A DNA stretch of 64,000 nt, from the NCBI GenBank assembly GCA_965214605.1, contig OZ243961.1:2720001-2784000 (forward strand). The letters run 5' to 3'. Source of the DNA: an uncultured Candidatus Binatia bacterium. GTDB lineage: Bacteria > Desulfobacterota > Binatia > Bin18. Position numbers and translations under genes: made by a program. Shown in pieces: positions 2,879 to 9,344 of this stretch. How positions within the stretch are numbered: position 1 is the first letter of the stretch; the number at the start of each line of letters is the position of its first letter. The notes under the pieces are model-generated. The model saw only the letters and a program-made list of their open reading frames with translations. It had not been told where the DNA came from and made no database searches.

Positions 2879-4282
2879 GTGGCATCACGACGACCCTCTT
2901 CCCCACCTCGGCAGGGGAACCTACGTTCCACCGGTCAGGGTTCTTCCTCTCCCCATACGCCCCGAACAAAACCCGGCTCCGGCAAGCTGGCACGACCTTT
3001 TCGCGGCAAGTTTCAGGCCAAAGCTCGGCGCTTCCAGGATCGCCCGTCCGTCTTGCGCGACAAAGAACGTCAACAAAACCAGACCCCAGCCGCCCGGCGT
3101 CCGCCCTGTCCGCATTATCCAGCCTGCCATGGCTGCCCCTTTGTCGGTGTTCCCTATGATGAACAGTTGAGCAAGAAACAGGCCCAGATCACGGCCGCTT
3201 TTGCCGACTATCTGTCTCTACGACCTGTCACTATTCCCGTCCCGGTTGCGTCCGGTCGCCGCTTTGGCTATCGCGCTCGGGTCAAGCTGGCCGTGCAACG
3301 CGTAAAGGGCAAGCCGGTCATTGGGCTGTATCGTCCGGAGTCGCACCGGGTTATCGACGCCTCGGCCTGTCCGGTCCATCCGCCGCCGATCAACGCCCTT
3401 GTGCGTTGTCTGAAGCAGCTGATTGAGAAACTCAGAATCACGCCGTATGACGAGCGGCACGATACCGGCCAACTCCGCTATCTCGACATTCGCTATAGTT
3501 TTTGGCAGAGACGCCTGCTGCTCACCCTGGTCACCCGTCACATGGATTTTCCGCAGATCCGTGAGCTTACCCGTGAGCTTGGCCGGCGCTTTCCGCACCT
3601 GGTCGGGGTGGTGCAGAATATCAATGATATCCCGGGGACCGAGGGGAACAGCATCTGGGGACACCGCTTTCACCCGCTGCGCGGACGCGACTCGCTCATC
3701 GAACAGGTCGGTCACCTGCGGCTCCATTCCTCGGCCGACACGTTCACCCAAATCAATCCGCCGGTTGCTCGCCAGCTCTACCAGACGGTCCTGGACTGGG
3801 CAGAGCTGAGCGCAGAGCACATCGCTCTTGATCTGTATTGCGGGACCGGACCGATAGCCCTGTATCTGGCCAGTCGGGCCAAACTCGTTGTCGGGGTTGA
3901 CGACAATACCCGGGCGATCCGGGTGGCTAAAGAAAACGCGCGTCACAATGGCTATCACAACACCCGCTTTTTCGCTGGGGATGCGGCGCATAGACTCAGA
4001 GAGACTGCCAGTCGGCTCGCCCGAATTGACTGTATCGTCGTCAATCCGCCCCGCAAGGGTCTGAGTCCCCGCGCGTTTACCGCGCTTGAGGCGGTGGCTG
4101 CGCCGCGTCTGGCCTACGTCTCGTGCGACCCGCTAAGCTTAGCCCGTGACCTTGATGGACTCTGCCGGGCCGGGTATCGGCTGACCAAACTCCAGCCTTT
4201 TGATATGTTTCCCCAAACAGACAAGGTTGAAACGCTTGTCCTCCTCAATCGGGCAGGTCGGGCGGAGGAGACGGACGCATGA
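2879..4282 (+). CDS. rlmD: 23S rRNA m5U methyltransferase (RlmD/TrmA family)
   Basis: CPHYPACHGC Fe-S motif, FTQIN, DLYCGTG, NPPRKG, YVSCDP, FDMFPQTDKVE. Confidence 0.9.
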   Translation: MASRRPSSPPRQGNLRSTGQGSSSPHTPRTKPGSGKLARPFRGKFQAKARRFQDRPSVLRDKERQQNQTPAARRPPCPHYPACHGCPFVGVPYDEQLSKKQAQITAAFADYLSLRPVTIPVPVASGRRFGYRARVKLAVQRVKGKPVIGLYRPESHRVIDASACPVHPPPINALVRCLKQLIEKLRITPYDERHDTGQLRYLDIRYSFWQRRLLLTLVTRHMDFPQIRELTRELGRRFPHLVGVVQNINDIPGTEGNSIWGHRFHPLRGRDSLIEQVGHLRLHSSADTFTQINPPVARQLYQTVLDWAELSAEHIALDLYCGTGPIALYLASRAKLVVGVDDNTRAIRVAKENARHNGYHNTRFFAGDAAHRLRETASRLARIDCIVVNPPRKGLSPRAFTALEAVAAPRLAYVSCDPLSLARDLDGLCRAGYRLTKLQPFDMFPQTDKVETLVLLNRAGRAEETDA

Positions 4283-5043
4283 GACCTGTGTGGTACACTG
4301 CCGCCGGTTGGGAGCGGATTCCTCATCTGATTCACGGCTTTTCCGGTCGAATAGCCGATCAGGCAGCGGCCCTGTCCGCTCTCTCCGAGGTGCAGCTCCC
4401 GCTGCATACGCTCAAACAGGTGCACGGGAACGAGATCCGGGTTGTTGGGAGCTCAGACCCACCCTGGCCAGACAAGACAAGGGGAACACGGATGCTCCCC
4501 TCTTGGAGGAACAACCCCCAGGCAGACGGGATGCTGAGTGCCGAAGCCGGTCAGCTTTTGGGCATTACCACCGCGGACTGCGTGCCTATCCTGATGGTTG
4601 CCCCACACCACCGCATGGTTGCCGCCCTGCACGCCGGCTGGCGGGGAACGGCCAAAGACATCTGTGGGCGCGCTATCCGGTCTCTGGAAACGGACTGGGG
4701 CGTCCCTCCCGCCGACCTGTTGGTCGCCTTGGGCCCGTCTATTGATGGTTGTTGTTACGAAGTTGGCCGCGATATTGGCGAAACCCTAGCCCAACAGCGG
4801 GGAACGCAGGGCTGGCGTGCCTGGCGGTCGAACGGCGACACCGGCTTCCTGGATTTACGCCTGGTCAATCGCCTGCGGTGTGAACAGTTTGGCGTTGCCC
4901 CCGACCGGATTCAACACGTTGGGCCGTGTACGTTTTGTTCAGGAGCGCTGCTGTCCTCGTATCGCAGAGAAGGAACCCATGCCGGCCGTCAGCTGAGCGT
5001 CATTGGCTGGTACGAGACGCTCGGTCGGAGTATTTGTCCGTGA
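4279..5043 (+). CDS. pgeF: PgeF/YfiH family peptidoglycan editing factor / purine nucleoside phosphorylase
   Basis: LKQVHG, TADCVPIL, HAGWRG, LGPSI..CCYEVG, SYRR. Confidence 0.9.
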   Translation: MRPVWYTAAGWERIPHLIHGFSGRIADQAAALSALSEVQLPLHTLKQVHGNEIRVVGSSDPPWPDKTRGTRMLPSWRNNPQADGMLSAEAGQLLGITTADCVPILMVAPHHRMVAALHAGWRGTAKDICGRAIRSLETDWGVPPADLLVALGPSIDGCCYEVGRDIGETLAQQRGTQGWRAWRSNGDTGFLDLRLVNRLRCEQFGVAPDRIQHVGPCTFCSGALLSSYRREGTHAGRQLSVIGWYETLGRSICP

Positions 5044-5045
5044 CG

Positions 5046-6125
5046 ATGAGAGCTATACGTATTGGTGTCATTGGTGCAGGCGGATGGGGAACGGCGCTGG
5101 CAGCCTTGTTGACCAAGGCCGGTCACGCCGTGTGCCTGTGGGTGCGCAAGCCCGAGCTGTGCGCCGAACTGCAAAAGACTGGCCAAAACCCGCGTTATTT
5201 GCCCGGAGTTCAGCTTCCCGCCGGTTTGACCTCCAGCGCTTCTCTGGCCGAGGTGGCCCGAGAAAAAGATATGCTGGTGCTCGCCGTCCCTGCTCAGGTG
5301 CTGCGTGGGGTGGTGTCCGAGTTGATACCGTTTCTGGCCTTAGAAGTGAACGATGAGGAGCAGTTGGGCAAGAAGCGCTCCTCATCGTTTTCCTCTTCGG
5401 TCGCTCCGGTCTTGGTCAATACTAGTAAAGGTGTTGAAGAAGAGACCTTGCTGACGATGAGCGGAGTGCTCAGAGAGGTGTTGGGACCCGGGGTACAGGC
5501 ACGTCTGGCCACCCTCTCCGGTCCTAGCTTTGCGGCCGATGTGGTGCGTGGCTTGCCAGCGGCGGTCACCGTCGCCGCTGCGAACCAAGTCCTGGCTCAA
5601 GAAGTCCAGCAGCTCTTTGCAACGGCCGAGTTCCGGGTCTATACCACAACCGATGTGACCGGGGTGGAGATTGGTGGGGCGGCAAAGAATGTCATTGCCC
5701 TAGCGGCCGGAGTCAGCGACGGACTGGGCTATGGGCAGAGTGCCCGCGCGGCGCTGATTACCAGAGGGCTGGTCGAGATTACGCGTTTAGCCGAATGGAT
5801 GGGTGGGTTGCCCCAGACCTTGTCCGGCCTGTCGGGCCTGGGAGATTTAGTCCTCACCTGTACCAGCACCCTGAGTCGAAATTATCAGGTGGGTGTACGT
5901 CTGGGCAAAGGCGAACCGATCGACAACATTCTGAACAGCATGACGACAGTAGCCGAGGGAGTGCGGACGAGTCGCTCCATCTTTGCCCTGGCCCAGCAGA
6001 GCGGCGTTGAAATGCCGATTATTGAGCAGGTCCACGCCCTTCTCTATCACCACAAATCTGCCCGCGAGGTAGTGACCGTCCTGCTCGGACGTGAGGTGAA
6101 ACCCGAATTTAGTAGCCGAAATTGA
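5046..6125 (+). CDS. gpsA: NAD(P)H-dependent glycerol-3-phosphate dehydrogenase
   Basis: GAGGWGTALA, SGPSFA, KNVIALAAG, GLGDLVLTC, SRNY, VAEGV. Confidence 0.95.
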   Translation: MRAIRIGVIGAGGWGTALAALLTKAGHAVCLWVRKPELCAELQKTGQNPRYLPGVQLPAGLTSSASLAEVAREKDMLVLAVPAQVLRGVVSELIPFLALEVNDEEQLGKKRSSSFSSSVAPVLVNTSKGVEEETLLTMSGVLREVLGPGVQARLATLSGPSFAADVVRGLPAAVTVAAANQVLAQEVQQLFATAEFRVYTTTDVTGVEIGGAAKNVIALAAGVSDGLGYGQSARAALITRGLVEITRLAEWMGGLPQTLSGLSGLGDLVLTCTSTLSRNYQVGVRLGKGEPIDNILNSMTTVAEGVRTSRSIFALAQQSGVEMPIIEQVHALLYHHKSAREVVTVLLGREVKPEFSSRN

Positions 6126-6150
6126 CAACCTTGGCCCGGTATGGTGAGAT
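6122..6150 (+). promoter_or_regulatory. possible sigma70 promoter of rpmH-rnpA
   Basis: Perfect TTGACA overlapping the gpsA stop, 17 nt spacer, weak TGn-TGAGAT -10. Confidence 0.35.
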
Positions 6151-6179
6151 GAGAGTCTTCTTGGATCACACATACACGG

Positions 6180-6722
6180 ATGAAGGTCAATGAAAAGAAC
6201 CTATCAACCCAGCAATATTCGTCGCAAGCGCACTCACGGCTTTCTGAGTCGGATGAGCACGCCGGCTGGTCGCGCCGTCATACGAAGACGCCGCAGCAGG
6301 GGACGCAAACGTCTGAGTGTCCAGATACCCCCCAAACAAGCACGGCTCTAGACACGCGGTCTGCCCCATCGACGTTCCAAAAAGCGGCTCGTATCTTAGT
6401 CCGCCGTGACTTTGTTGTTCTCCAGCGTAAGGGCAGGCGCCGCCATACTCCGCACTTTGTGGTGATGACAAGACCGAGACAGACCGGCTGCTCCCGTCTC
6501 GGGATTACAGCCACCCGCCGTTTTGGCAATGCGGTGATGCGCAACCGCGTAAAGAGACGTGTGCGTGAATTTTTTCGCCGTCACCAAGCCGATTTCGTCC
6601 CCAGTCAAGATATCCTGGTCATCCCCAAGCCCGGTGCTGGACAGCTGTCCTTTCGCCAGATCAGCCAAGAGCTCGGCCGGGCATTGTCTCTTGCTGAAAA
6701 AACCCGCTTCGGCATACAGTAG
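6180..6722 (+). CDS. rnpA: Ribonuclease P protein component with N-terminal extension overlapping rpmH
   Basis: [38 protein letters not shown] (RNR motif); the only ATG/GTG/TTG upstream of the conserved core is at 6180. Confidence 0.85.
6190..6351 (+). CDS. rpmH: 50S ribosomal protein L34 (53 aa, absent from the ORF track)
   Basis: [53 protein letters not shown]. Confidence 0.97.
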
Positions 6723-6801
6723 GACTGACCGACCAATGACTACTGCTCCCGACTTCTCAATGCCGCATTCCTGATTTTCCGGATAAGGTAGCCGCACCAC
6801 T

Positions 6802-8451
6802 ATGATGGATAAAAGGAGCCTGATCGCAATCGTCCTCTCTCTGGTCATTCTGATTGGCTATCAGGAACTGATCAGCTACCTGTATCCGCCCCCACCGCCA
6901 CAAGAGCCCCCTGTTCTGTCCGAGCGGCTCGGCTCGTCCCCCGCCTCCTCCTCCTCGGTCATGCCTGCGCCTGAAGTTGAGCAAAGCCTCGGGGTCGCGC
7001 CTAACACCCCGGTTGCCCATGCCCAGCCTGAAGAACAGGAAATCGTGGTTGAAAACGTCGTGTATCGCGCCGTATTTAGCTCGCGTGGAGCTCGGCTGAA
7101 GAGCCTCACCCTCAAAGACTATCCCGGAGACGCGGGTGAACACAGTCCGCCCCGGGAAATGGTCCGTCCAGGCGTTGGGGACGTTGCTCCCCTTGAGGTG
7201 CGGCTTGAGGGGGACGGTACGAGTCTGGATGATACGGGTGTTGTCTACGCGGTTGAGAGTGACAATATCGAGTTTGACGCCCAAGAGCAGGCGATTCTGA
7301 CCTTTCGCGGCACTCTCGCCGACGGAACGCCGATTGCAAAGGTGTTCACCTTCACGGTAGACACCTACGGCATACAACTCGCCGTTCAGGTCGGGCAAGC
7401 TCCGCCGAACGTCTCCGCCCTCTCCTTGGTATGGATTGAGAGCCTGGATCCGACCCAGACCGATGATTTCTACACGACCTATGGTCCGGTGGCGCTAGTG
7501 GGCCGAAAATTCGTCTATGAAGGCGCGTCTGGATTGGACGAGCCGGAAATTCTTGGACCCGGCCAGGTACGCTGGGCCGGTTTCACCGATTCCTACTTCC
7601 TCGCCGCTATGATGCCCCCGGCCGGGGAGAGTTATCGCTGTGTGTTCAGGTTGGTCAATAACACGGCCCGAACCACCCTGACCATGCCCTGGGCCGGAGA
7701 GAGCGTCTCCTACACCCTGTATGTCGGTCCCAAAGAAACCGAAGCGCTCAGCGCCGTTGACCCGGTCTTTGACCGGGCGATTGATTTCGGTTGGTTCCAT
7801 TTTATCGCCCGTCCGCTTATCTCCTTGTTACGTCTGTCACACAGTCTGACCGGTAACTACGGACTTGATATCATTTTACTAACCGTCCTGGTGAAACTCC
7901 TCTTTTTTCCCCTGAGCAATAAGAGCTTTCAGTCCATGGCGGCAATGAAAAAGCTGCAACCCCAAATGGAGCGGCTCAGGGAGCGCCACAAAGACGACCG
8001 CCAGAAGCTCAACCAGGAAGTGATGGAGCTCTACAAACGTAACAAGGTCAACCCCTTGGGCGGTTGCCTGCCGATGATTGTCCAATTTCCGGTCTTCATC
8101 GGCCTCTATCAGGGCTTGATGTACGCCATTGAGTTACGTCAGGCCCCGTTTTTTGGCTGGATCACCGATCTGTCCAGCCCCGACCGCCTGGGCAGTCTGG
8201 CTATTCCGTTCGTCGATCCCCCTGGGCTGCCCATCTTGACCCTGTTTATGGGCGGATCAATGTTACTCCAACAATGGATGACGCCCATGACGACCGGAGA
8301 TCCGATCCAGCAAAAAATGATGATGTTGATGCCGGTGATCTTCACCGTGATGTTTGTTAATTTTCCTTCTGGCCTGGTGCTCTATTGGCTGGTGAATAAT
8401 GTCCTGAGTATCGCCCAGCAGTATTGGTATAACGCTCAGCACGTCTCATAG
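6802..8451 (+). CDS. yidC: Membrane protein insertase YidC
   Basis: IDFGWF, GNYGLDIILLT, NPLGGCLP, ELRQAPFFGWITDLS, PSGLVLYW. Confidence 0.96.
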   Translation: MMDKRSLIAIVLSLVILIGYQELISYLYPPPPPQEPPVLSERLGSSPASSSSVMPAPEVEQSLGVAPNTPVAHAQPEEQEIVVENVVYRAVFSSRGARLKSLTLKDYPGDAGEHSPPREMVRPGVGDVAPLEVRLEGDGTSLDDTGVVYAVESDNIEFDAQEQAILTFRGTLADGTPIAKVFTFTVDTYGIQLAVQVGQAPPNVSALSLVWIESLDPTQTDDFYTTYGPVALVGRKFVYEGASGLDEPEILGPGQVRWAGFTDSYFLAAMMPPAGESYRCVFRLVNNTARTTLTMPWAGESVSYTLYVGPKETEALSAVDPVFDRAIDFGWFHFIARPLISLLRLSHSLTGNYGLDIILLTVLVKLLFFPLSNKSFQSMAAMKKLQPQMERLRERHKDDRQKLNQEVMELYKRNKVNPLGGCLPMIVQFPVFIGLYQGLMYAIELRQAPFFGWITDLSSPDRLGSLAIPFVDPPGLPILTLFMGGSMLLQQWMTPMTTGDPIQQKMMMLMPVIFTVMFVNFPSGLVLYWLVNNVLSIAQQYWYNAQHVS

Positions 8452-8492: not shown

Positions 8493-9344
8493 ATGAATGC
8501 GGTAGAAGCGGAAGGACGAACGGTTGAAGAAGCCGTTGCTGTTGCCCTCAGGCAGCTCGGTGTGGAACAGGAGCACGCCGAGATTGAGATTGTGTCACAG
8601 TCAACCAAAGGCTTTCTCGGCATTGGCGGCAAAAGGGCACGGGTGCGGGCCAGTCTGCGCACCCCGTCTGAGGTTACCCAAGAGTCGCCACCCGCCTCTC
8701 CCAGGCGACGGCGGGAAACCCGGAAAGAGAGCCGGGAGAACGCTAGACAAGATCCCTACGCTCCGTCAGGCCGCGCGGTGACCGAATACCTCTCTGAGCC
8801 TGGGCAAGAATCAGATCAAACCGCCGCTCCAGCCACCGCGTTGTCGCCCGAGTTCGTCGAGCGAGCGGGCCAGCTGCTCCGAGAGATCTTAGTCCGTATG
8901 GACATACAGACGGAGGTCTCGTCTTCCATCCAGAACAACGAGATAGTGCTCAATTTCGAGGATGTCACCGACGGGCTTCTCATCGGACGCAAGGGGCAGA
9001 CCCTCGACGCCTTGGAGTATTTGCTCAATCGCATCATCGCCAAAAACGACGACACCGAAGCCCACGTGCTGCTTGACACGGCCGGTTACCAAGAACGGCG
9101 ACGCCAGAATTTGGAGAATCTGGCCATGCGCCTTGGTGAACGGGCTAAGCGGCGGCGGCGGACGGTGACCCTGAGTCCGCTCAATCCGCGCGACCGCCGT
9201 ATTATCCATCTGGCCCTGGAAGGCGATCCGTTGGTGGCAACAAAAAGTGTGGGCCGCGGCTACCTGCGGCGGCTCAGCATTGTTCCCGAAGAAGCCACGC
9301 GCCGTGAACGAGGTCGGGGCGCGGCGCGCATGTCAGCCGAGTAA
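8493..9344 (+). CDS. jag: Jag/EloR (KhpB) RNA-binding protein
   Basis: Jag_N (GRTVEEAV..KGFLGIG), KH (LIGRKGQTLDALEYL), R3H (RDRRIIH). Confidence 0.92.
   Translation: MNAVEAEGRTVEEAVAVALRQLGVEQEHAEIEIVSQSTKGFLGIGGKRARVRASLRTPSEVTQESPPASPRRRRETRKESRENARQDPYAPSGRAVTEYLSEPGQESDQTAAPATALSPEFVERAGQLLREILVRMDIQTEVSSSIQNNEIVLNFEDVTDGLLIGRKGQTLDALEYLLNRIIAKNDDTEAHVLLDTAGYQERRRQNLENLAMRLGERAKRRRRTVTLSPLNPRDRRIIHLALEGDPLVATKSVGRGYLRRLSIVPEEATRRERGRGAARMSAE

Follow-up and report, generated by a model that had tools for sequence, protein, structure and literature searches.

The window analysed here is a stretch of 64,000 nucleotides from an uncultured Candidatus Binatia bacterium. Within it rpmH, which encodes ribosomal protein L34, is wholly enclosed by the open reading frame of rnpA, coding for the RNase P protein, on the same strand and in another frame, with the two starts 10 nt apart. 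The features of the locus and its neighbors, numbered from the first nucleotide of the window, are as follows.

4279-5043, + strand: gene of the Cu-oxidase_4 family
about 5046-6125, + strand: gpsA
6122-6150, + strand: promoter-like block recognized by family comparison, consisting of TTGACA (6122-6127), 12 nt, and TATGGTGAGAT (6140-6150)
6150-6152, + strand: TGA in the rnpA frame, the upstream bound of that frame (ORF listing)
6176-6182, + strand: ACGG-ATG motif (family conservation), whose ATG at 6180-6182 is the proposed rnpA start
6180-6722, + strand: rnpA in its long form, 180 aa including an N-terminal extension of about 65 aa; stop TAG at 6720-6722
6190-6351, + strand: rpmH (Pfam), encoding L34 of 53 aa, a 44-aa family core plus 9 C-terminal residues
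6348-6374, + strand: junction and linker, with CTA over the rpmH stop TAG and then nine codons to F-[PQ]-K
6375-6689, + strand: RnpA core (Pfam Ribonuclease_P, aa 66-170), with the RNR motif at aa 121-130 (6540-6569)
6802-8451, + strand: yidC, the next gene of the operon (Pfam 60KD_IMP and YidC_periplas)
8493-9344, + strand: jag

The rnpA frame is open from ATG 6180 through the whole of rpmH, and the 180-aa ORF at 6180-6722 described in the initial annotation was recovered. ATG 6180 is the earliest canonical start available to this gene, none lying between it and the TGA at 6150-6152. As had also been claimed, no further ATG, GTG, or TTG occurs in the frame before the conserved core begins; the next is GTG 6459, inside that core. 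Over the rpmH stop stands CTA (6348-6350), and the junction reads CTAG without a start codon. A long N-terminal extension had been noted as well, and because the Pfam core begins at aa 66, its length comes to about 65 aa. The frame stands in the same register as that of Thermus (start spacings of 10 and 4 nt, both 1 mod 3), and the peptide named beforehand as a target for proteomics is present in the 180-aa translation. From this arrangement and the comparisons that follow, we consider it likely that rnpA is translated from ATG 6180, through rpmH in the second frame, to yield a 180-aa RNase P protein.

Downstream, yidC begins 80 nt 3' of rnpA in the window (gap 6722-6802). This region was compared with loci L015, L016, L019, L021, L023, and L024. 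At one locus of genus g5 (L015), a yidD-like ORF lies 3' of rnpA. In loci of genera g4, g5, and g9, the region 3' of rnpA has an internal stretch of yidC as its longest frame, and the yidC N-terminus was matched in three of these. Where rnpA encodes the RNR motif and E-F-F, a terminator-like hairpin followed by a T run lies within the gene itself at 6546-6575 and is probably a by-product of those codons.

The L34 product matches Pfam Ribosomal_L34 (PF00468) over aa 1-44, equivalent to profile positions 1-44 of 44 (E = 3.8e-23, 81.6 bits), and RnpA matches Pfam Ribonuclease_P (PF00825) over aa 66-170, equivalent to profile positions 1-106 of 109 (E = 1.3e-26, 93.2 bits against a cut-off of 22.3). 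Residues R121, N122, K125, R126, R129, and E130 of RnpA are invariant in an 18-sequence alignment. Eleven distinct RnpA sequences of the PDB were matched, with aa 64-173 aligning to the structures at E values from 2.6e-16 to 1.5e-9; the closest is that of Thermotoga maritima (3q1q/1nz0, E = 2.6e-16). The RNR motif is common to the Binatia protein and to the solved structures (1nz0/3q1q; Bacillus subtilis, 1a6f; Staphylococcus aureus, 1d6t). The solved proteins, however, are 112 to 137 residues long and none carries an extension of about 65 residues, whereas the Binatia RnpA does. AlphaFold2 gave pLDDT values of 83-94 for the core, which is predicted with high confidence to adopt an alpha/beta fold, and of 37-56 for aa 1-65; the extension is thus predicted to be disordered. 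The only PF00825 match in this genome, which is 99.99% complete, is the rnpA locus, and a type A RNase P RNA is encoded in the same genome (RF00010, 286 bits, gathering score 100; G000:C1:832691-833093). Since this is the sole rnpA and the RNA partner is present, rnpA must be expressed somehow.

L34 is 68-100% identical over aa 1-44 among 30 loci. Its length is 52-53 residues throughout the class, 8-9 beyond the 44-residue profile (the added part lying at 6322-6351 in the window), and 44-50 residues in distant members of the phylum. Between genera, the extension is 45% identical, much of this imposed by L34, which is 81% identical. As a check for selection on the sequence of the extension, third-position likeness between genera was compared; it is 0.516 for rpmH versus 0.389 for the rnpA core, a difference that the codon bias of a highly expressed gene would produce as well.

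An open frame of this kind has to be measured against chance. A stop in the rnpA frame requires an rpmH codon ending in T followed by a codon starting with AA, AG, or GA, and the rpmH of the window has 10 such stop-prone sites. When the L34 codons were resampled, the probability of a stop-free frame was 0.31 with genome-wide codon usage and 0.33 with context-specific usage; with the local frequency of T at third positions (rpmH and rnpA), it was 0.03. For the window genome by itself, an open frame is nothing unusual (P about 0.33), and the case for anything beyond chance rests on relatives. Among the 150 phylum matches listed, 70 are in register, with the match running from the first 15 residues of the extension; 24 of the 68 in-register matches from outside the family, counted by eye among the matches listed, are stop-free.

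Of the 55 genomes of the family (f1) that were searched, 52 gave a match, and with one locus cut by a contig end, 51 were informative. The initial annotation had proposed that a Thermus-like gene within a gene arose in parallel in a distant lineage, and had pointed to an alignment of relatives as the check; the family comparison supports the proposal, with 46 of the 51 loci (43 distinct DNA sequences) combining the upstream ATG with an uninterrupted frame into the RnpA core. Only one of these 46 long-form loci has another canonical start before F-P-K (L008, GTG at +125), and in many loci an in-frame stop lies just three codons before the upstream ATG, leaving no other upstream start usable there. 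Across the 46 long-form loci, T was found at 0 of 414 third positions where it would create a stop, whereas it fills 378 of the 1582 other third positions able to hold it. Taking a single locus from each genus gives 0 of 68 and 72 of 278. The critical sites vary among C, A, and G at no fewer than eight codons, and third positions are about 49% identical between genera, so T is being kept out of positions that otherwise go on changing. Multiplying the per-genus chance probabilities for eight genera gave 8.5e-5 under a conservative model; the relatives are not independent, and pooled values of this sort overstate the evidence and are upper bounds on its strength.

The position of the protected sites is also informative. 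The 5'-most are at rpmH codons 7-8, the first places where a stop could arise, and reading in the rnpA frame must therefore begin before them. Across the family, 7, 9, or 11 codons separate the rpmH stop from F-P-K; this linker differs only by whole codons, which implies at least three indels, all of them frame preserving. Over the rpmH stop, the 46 long-form loci have CTA (29), TTA (8), CTG (7), or ATA (2); no position of the linker shows a conserved near-cognate start, and in 12 of the 46 the linker contains no such codon. Among the outgroups, pooled, T is also scarce, at 2 of 55 critical sites versus 47 of 198 elsewhere; in two of these six outgroups, codons ending in T are very rare overall, and one outgroup (L030) is itself a candidate nested case. 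As judged from these patterns of substitution, selection is keeping the second reading frame open in the family.

An ATG in the rnpA frame lies 10 nt before the rpmH ATG (13 nt in L016) in all 51 informative family loci, preceded by GG in 49 and by ACGG in 42. The ACGG-ATG motif persists, however, in the five family genomes in which the long frame is broken, so its conservation alone is no proof of its use; at least in part, it may serve rpmH instead of rnpA. Overlapping this motif, 7 nt before the rpmH ATG, is a weak Shine-Dalgarno-like GGAUG, the only such element before rpmH. No Shine-Dalgarno sequence was found before ATG 6180, where pairing was estimated at -4.9 kcal/mol (random genomic median, -4.2). 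Across 24 family loci, pairing at the upstream ATG ranged from -1.1 to -7.6 kcal/mol, with eight loci at -1.1 and 19 no stronger than about -4.5. A search for conserved RNA structure around both starts found none (consensus energy of -0.01 kcal/mol, no covariation).

Further upstream, a block of AAATTGACA, 12 nt, and TATGGTGAGAT is conserved 5' of rpmH in most family loci compared, at a distance to the ATGs that varies from about 30 to 100 nt. In the window, the block at 6122-6150 can be read as a putative -35 element, a 17-nt spacer, and a TG-extended -10 element (TGAGAT), which would start the mRNA near 6157 and leave a leader of about 23 nt before ATG 6180. A consensus promoter scan called no promoter on the + strand, passing over the block because it has no A at position 2 of the -10 element. 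A leaderless mRNA beginning at ATG 6180 was considered and dropped, the promoter-like block of the family lying at least 30 nt upstream of the ATG. In three outgroups, where TTGACA is only about 41 nt before the rpmH ATG, the start may be leaderless.

The five family loci with a broken frame, which furnish the strongest evidence, fall into two groups. In genus g4 (three genomes), the upstream ATG is kept, the rnpA frame contains two or three stops, the first at codon 8, and a GTG overlaps the rpmH TGA (GTGA) as an ordinary coupled start. T occupies 7 of 25 critical sites in this genus, no different in rate from the rest of the gene (24 of 107). In a tree built from the RnpA core and YidC, g4 lies deep within the family as sister to g9 plus g5 (SH-aLRT 99), and a tree forcing all long-form sequences together was rejected (AU p = 0.0018, for a grouping that was chosen after the tree was seen). 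For rnpA, outgroups from the order and class use ATGA, TTGA, or a separate start, and they have no ATG at -10. Given the nested position of g4 and the rejection of the all-long-form grouping, g4 is most likely a revertant, and the simplest history has the nested form arising once at the base of the family. Stops in the frame of relatives, which the initial annotation had named as evidence against nesting, do thus occur; because they come together with a regained GTG over the rpmH stop, they fit the nested-gene reading and do not refute it.

The second group comprises two genomes of genus g8 (G432 and G437), in which a 58-nt palindromic element follows the rpmH stop (L089:477-540 in G432 and the same place in L090). 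The element forms a perfect stem that folds at -27.8 kcal/mol, and about 40 further copies with 75-89% identity are present in the G432 genome, as in a REP/MITE-like family. Its insertion puts the core out of register with the long frame and supplies AGAGGAA followed by a GTG in the frame of the core. A canonical start near the junction is thus found in all five broken-frame loci and is absent in 45 of the 46 intact-frame loci. The extension has been lost twice while rnpA persisted.

Other ways of producing RnpA from this locus have to be weighed against initiation at ATG 6180. In one, the usual protein of about 115-120 aa would start at a non-canonical or near-cognate codon by the rpmH stop (in the window, ACG 6354, ACG 6372, or ATC 6393), perhaps through ribosomes that have just finished L34; the long frame would then reflect chance and codon bias, and the upstream ATG would be part of the ribosome-binding region of rpmH. 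Such a start could be very weak and still suffice, as RnpA is needed at about 1/130 of the amount of L34 in E. coli (PMC9945441). The open frame by itself has a probability of about 0.33, the ATG motif is kept where the frame is broken and overlaps the weak GGAUG of rpmH, and the open frame of one locus elsewhere in the phylum (L062, below) holds not a single canonical start. Against this, no near-cognate codon is conserved in the linker, where 12 of the 46 long-form loci lack one altogether, and the codon over the stop is mostly CTA (29) or TTA (8), two changes away from AUG. Left unexplained, moreover, are the absence of stop-creating T (0 of 414, compared with 7 of 25 in the sister genus with its GTG start), the frame-keeping indels of the linker, and the canonical GTG in both broken-frame lineages. 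We therefore regard a start near the rpmH stop as unlikely.

Alternatively, the locus might yield two forms, with ATG 6180 giving a long RnpA and a weak internal start giving a short one, so that the nested frame would be an auxiliary source. A TTG or GTG is present in the A-R-L-L motif just after F-P-K in 14 of the 46 long-form loci, and the extension is dispensable within the family (g4, G432, and G437). The window has no ATG, GTG, or TTG at A-R-L-L, however; the Leu codons of this motif vary freely among CTG, TTG, CTC, ATC, and GTG, and a start there would remove the conserved F-P-K-x-x-R, all of which makes the production of two forms quite improbable. A frameshift within rpmH, after initiation at the rpmH ATG, would give an L34-RnpA fusion. 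It is true that the two frames share 162 nt and that, between 6180 and the core, the rnpA frame offers no further canonical start, but stop avoidance reaches rpmH codons 7-8, showing that the frame is read from an earlier point, no conserved RNA structure surrounds the starts, and the first stop in g4 is at codon 8. We find such a fusion scarcely credible. Initiation at ATG 6180 thus remains the reading that we carry forward.

Beyond the family, open frames with only upstream canonical starts were found in other families of the Binatia, namely, in G036 (ATG at -46), G030 (ATGs at -49 and -40), G032, and G296. In f34, all five sampled genomes (L047, L049, L051, L053, and L054) encode an L34 beginning M-Q-Q-L-T, and the rpmH ATG is preceded at a distance of 28 nt by a conserved ATG in the rnpA frame; this frame is open, with no canonical start near the junction; f34 is a candidate second nested lineage with a different offset. 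A further case comes from f38 (G065, L055), at a locus with 30% GC. Its frame is open across rpmH with canonical starts only at -64 and -37, and its 12 critical sites are without T versus 45% T at comparable sites (P about 0.001). Judged by this count, G065 is a stronger single-genome case than the window. Ordinary starts are present in 12 of the 20 open-frame phylum loci examined. At L062 (G110, f64), an open frame reaches from 103 nt before rpmH into the core and holds no ATG, GTG, or TTG, so this rnpA probably has to use a non-canonical start, and such starts probably do occur in rnpA. The nested layout thus seems, from these loci, to have arisen several times in the phylum. One genome (G011) also has a second, divergent rpmH-rnpA pair (L039) on a 2-kb contig (G011:C347), with a 44-aa L34 and an RnpA-like frame that contains a stop; this pair may be assembly contamination.

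The known counterpart is found in Thermus, where rpmH is fully nested in rnpA, the starts are 4 nt apart (AUGGAUG), and one strong Shine-Dalgarno sequence, GGAGG, serves both (Feltens et al. 2003, PNAS 100:5724, as described in PMC9841429). The same 2022 paper calls the Thermus pair the sole described bacterial case of two overlapping frames read from one ambiguous initiation site. In the literature, we found no described nested rpmH/rnpA pair other than that of Thermus; in PMC4072686 and PMC2099444, the genes come up in other connections. As far as the Thermus system is described in PMC9841429, the two share the gene pair, the strand, the register, closely spaced AUGs, and an N-terminal extension of RnpA. 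They differ in start spacing, which is 10 nt at the Binatia locus (ATG-N7-ATG) and 4 nt in Thermus, and in ribosome binding, Thermus having a common GGAGG whereas the Binatia locus has no Shine-Dalgarno sequence at the upstream ATG and the weak GGAUG for rpmH. Expression of both proteins has been shown in Thermus, whereas the Binatia layout comes from the sequences of organisms known only as metagenome-assembled genomes. The lineages are unrelated, and the L34 of the Binatia locus has 9 extra C-terminal residues. By its layout, the Binatia locus is of the Thermus kind of nested rnpA/rpmH and does not constitute a new kind.

The ordinary rpmH-rnpA operon, with a 4-nt overlap (ATGA, GTGA, or TTGA), has the same gene order and promoter side and a similar RnpA core; this state is found in outgroups (L025, L026, L029, and L034) and in genus g4. 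It carries a start codon over the rpmH stop, whereas the window has CTAG and a frame that continues upstream through rpmH. The ambiguous AUGUG and GUGUG starts of E. coli, as in pqiA, tamA, and narQ (PMC9841429), are alike in placing the starts of two frames within one ribosome footprint, where one choice excludes the other. According to the same source, however, those starts overlap directly and mostly serve a short alternative ORF, whereas at the Binatia locus 10 nt separate the starts and each of the two products is an essential housekeeping protein.

A model of the nested locus can be proposed from these comparisons. The ancestor would have had the usual rnpA start over the rpmH stop (ATGA, GTGA, or TTGA), as outgroups still do. 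At the base of the family, this stop-coupled start would have been lost and the upstream ATG would have taken over, capturing a frame that chance would leave open in roughly one such GC-rich gene in three and from which stops would subsequently have been selected out. In the present genome, a ribosome starting at ATG 6180 would cross the entire rpmH in another frame before reaching an ordinary RnpA core, and the first 65 or so residues of RnpA would be a disordered by-product of the L34 codons. With two AUGs 10 nt apart within one ribosome footprint on an unstructured leader, the two initiation complexes would be expected to exclude each other. The rpmH AUG lies in an A-rich context with AAA-AGR after it and the weak GGAUG before it, and the rnpA AUG has neither, which may favor rpmH. 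A weak rnpA start lacking a Shine-Dalgarno sequence would yield little RnpA beside much L34, matching the roughly 1:130 ratio of RnpA to L34 reported for E. coli (PMC9945441). It is plausible that competition between the starts, as put forward in the initial annotation, sets the L34:RnpA ratio.

More broadly, nesting of rpmH in rnpA may be a recurrent end point reached independently in bacteria, a reading that, taken whole with its origins, losses, and consequences, we hold to be evenly poised. By this reading, rnpA loses its stop-coupled start and captures an upstream AUG in a frame that, owing to GC-rich L34 codons, stays open in about one case in three. If so, there would have been at least three or four origins within the phylum, with different offsets of the rnpA start (-10 in f1, -28 in f34, -37 or -64 in f38, and -40 to -49 in other Binatia), and nesting would have been lost again on at least two occasions, through a regained GTGA in one and through a repeat element bearing a Shine-Dalgarno sequence and a GTG in the other. 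The extension of about 65 residues would be a dispensable passenger, and the upstream AUG without a Shine-Dalgarno sequence would be a built-in means of making little RnpA and much L34. A second, family-wide lineage unrelated to Thermus, complete with natural revertants, indicates that the layout is selected and able to evolve repeatedly, and the 46 nested and five un-nested loci within one family offer a comparative system for the L34:RnpA ratio in the absence of a Shine-Dalgarno sequence. The literature and annotation examined held no description of the overlap in relatives, in which automatic gene callers predict RnpA proteins of 176-180 aa. For annotation more generally, a pipeline that does not allow genes on one strand to overlap extensively would leave out rpmH or cut rnpA short at loci of this kind.
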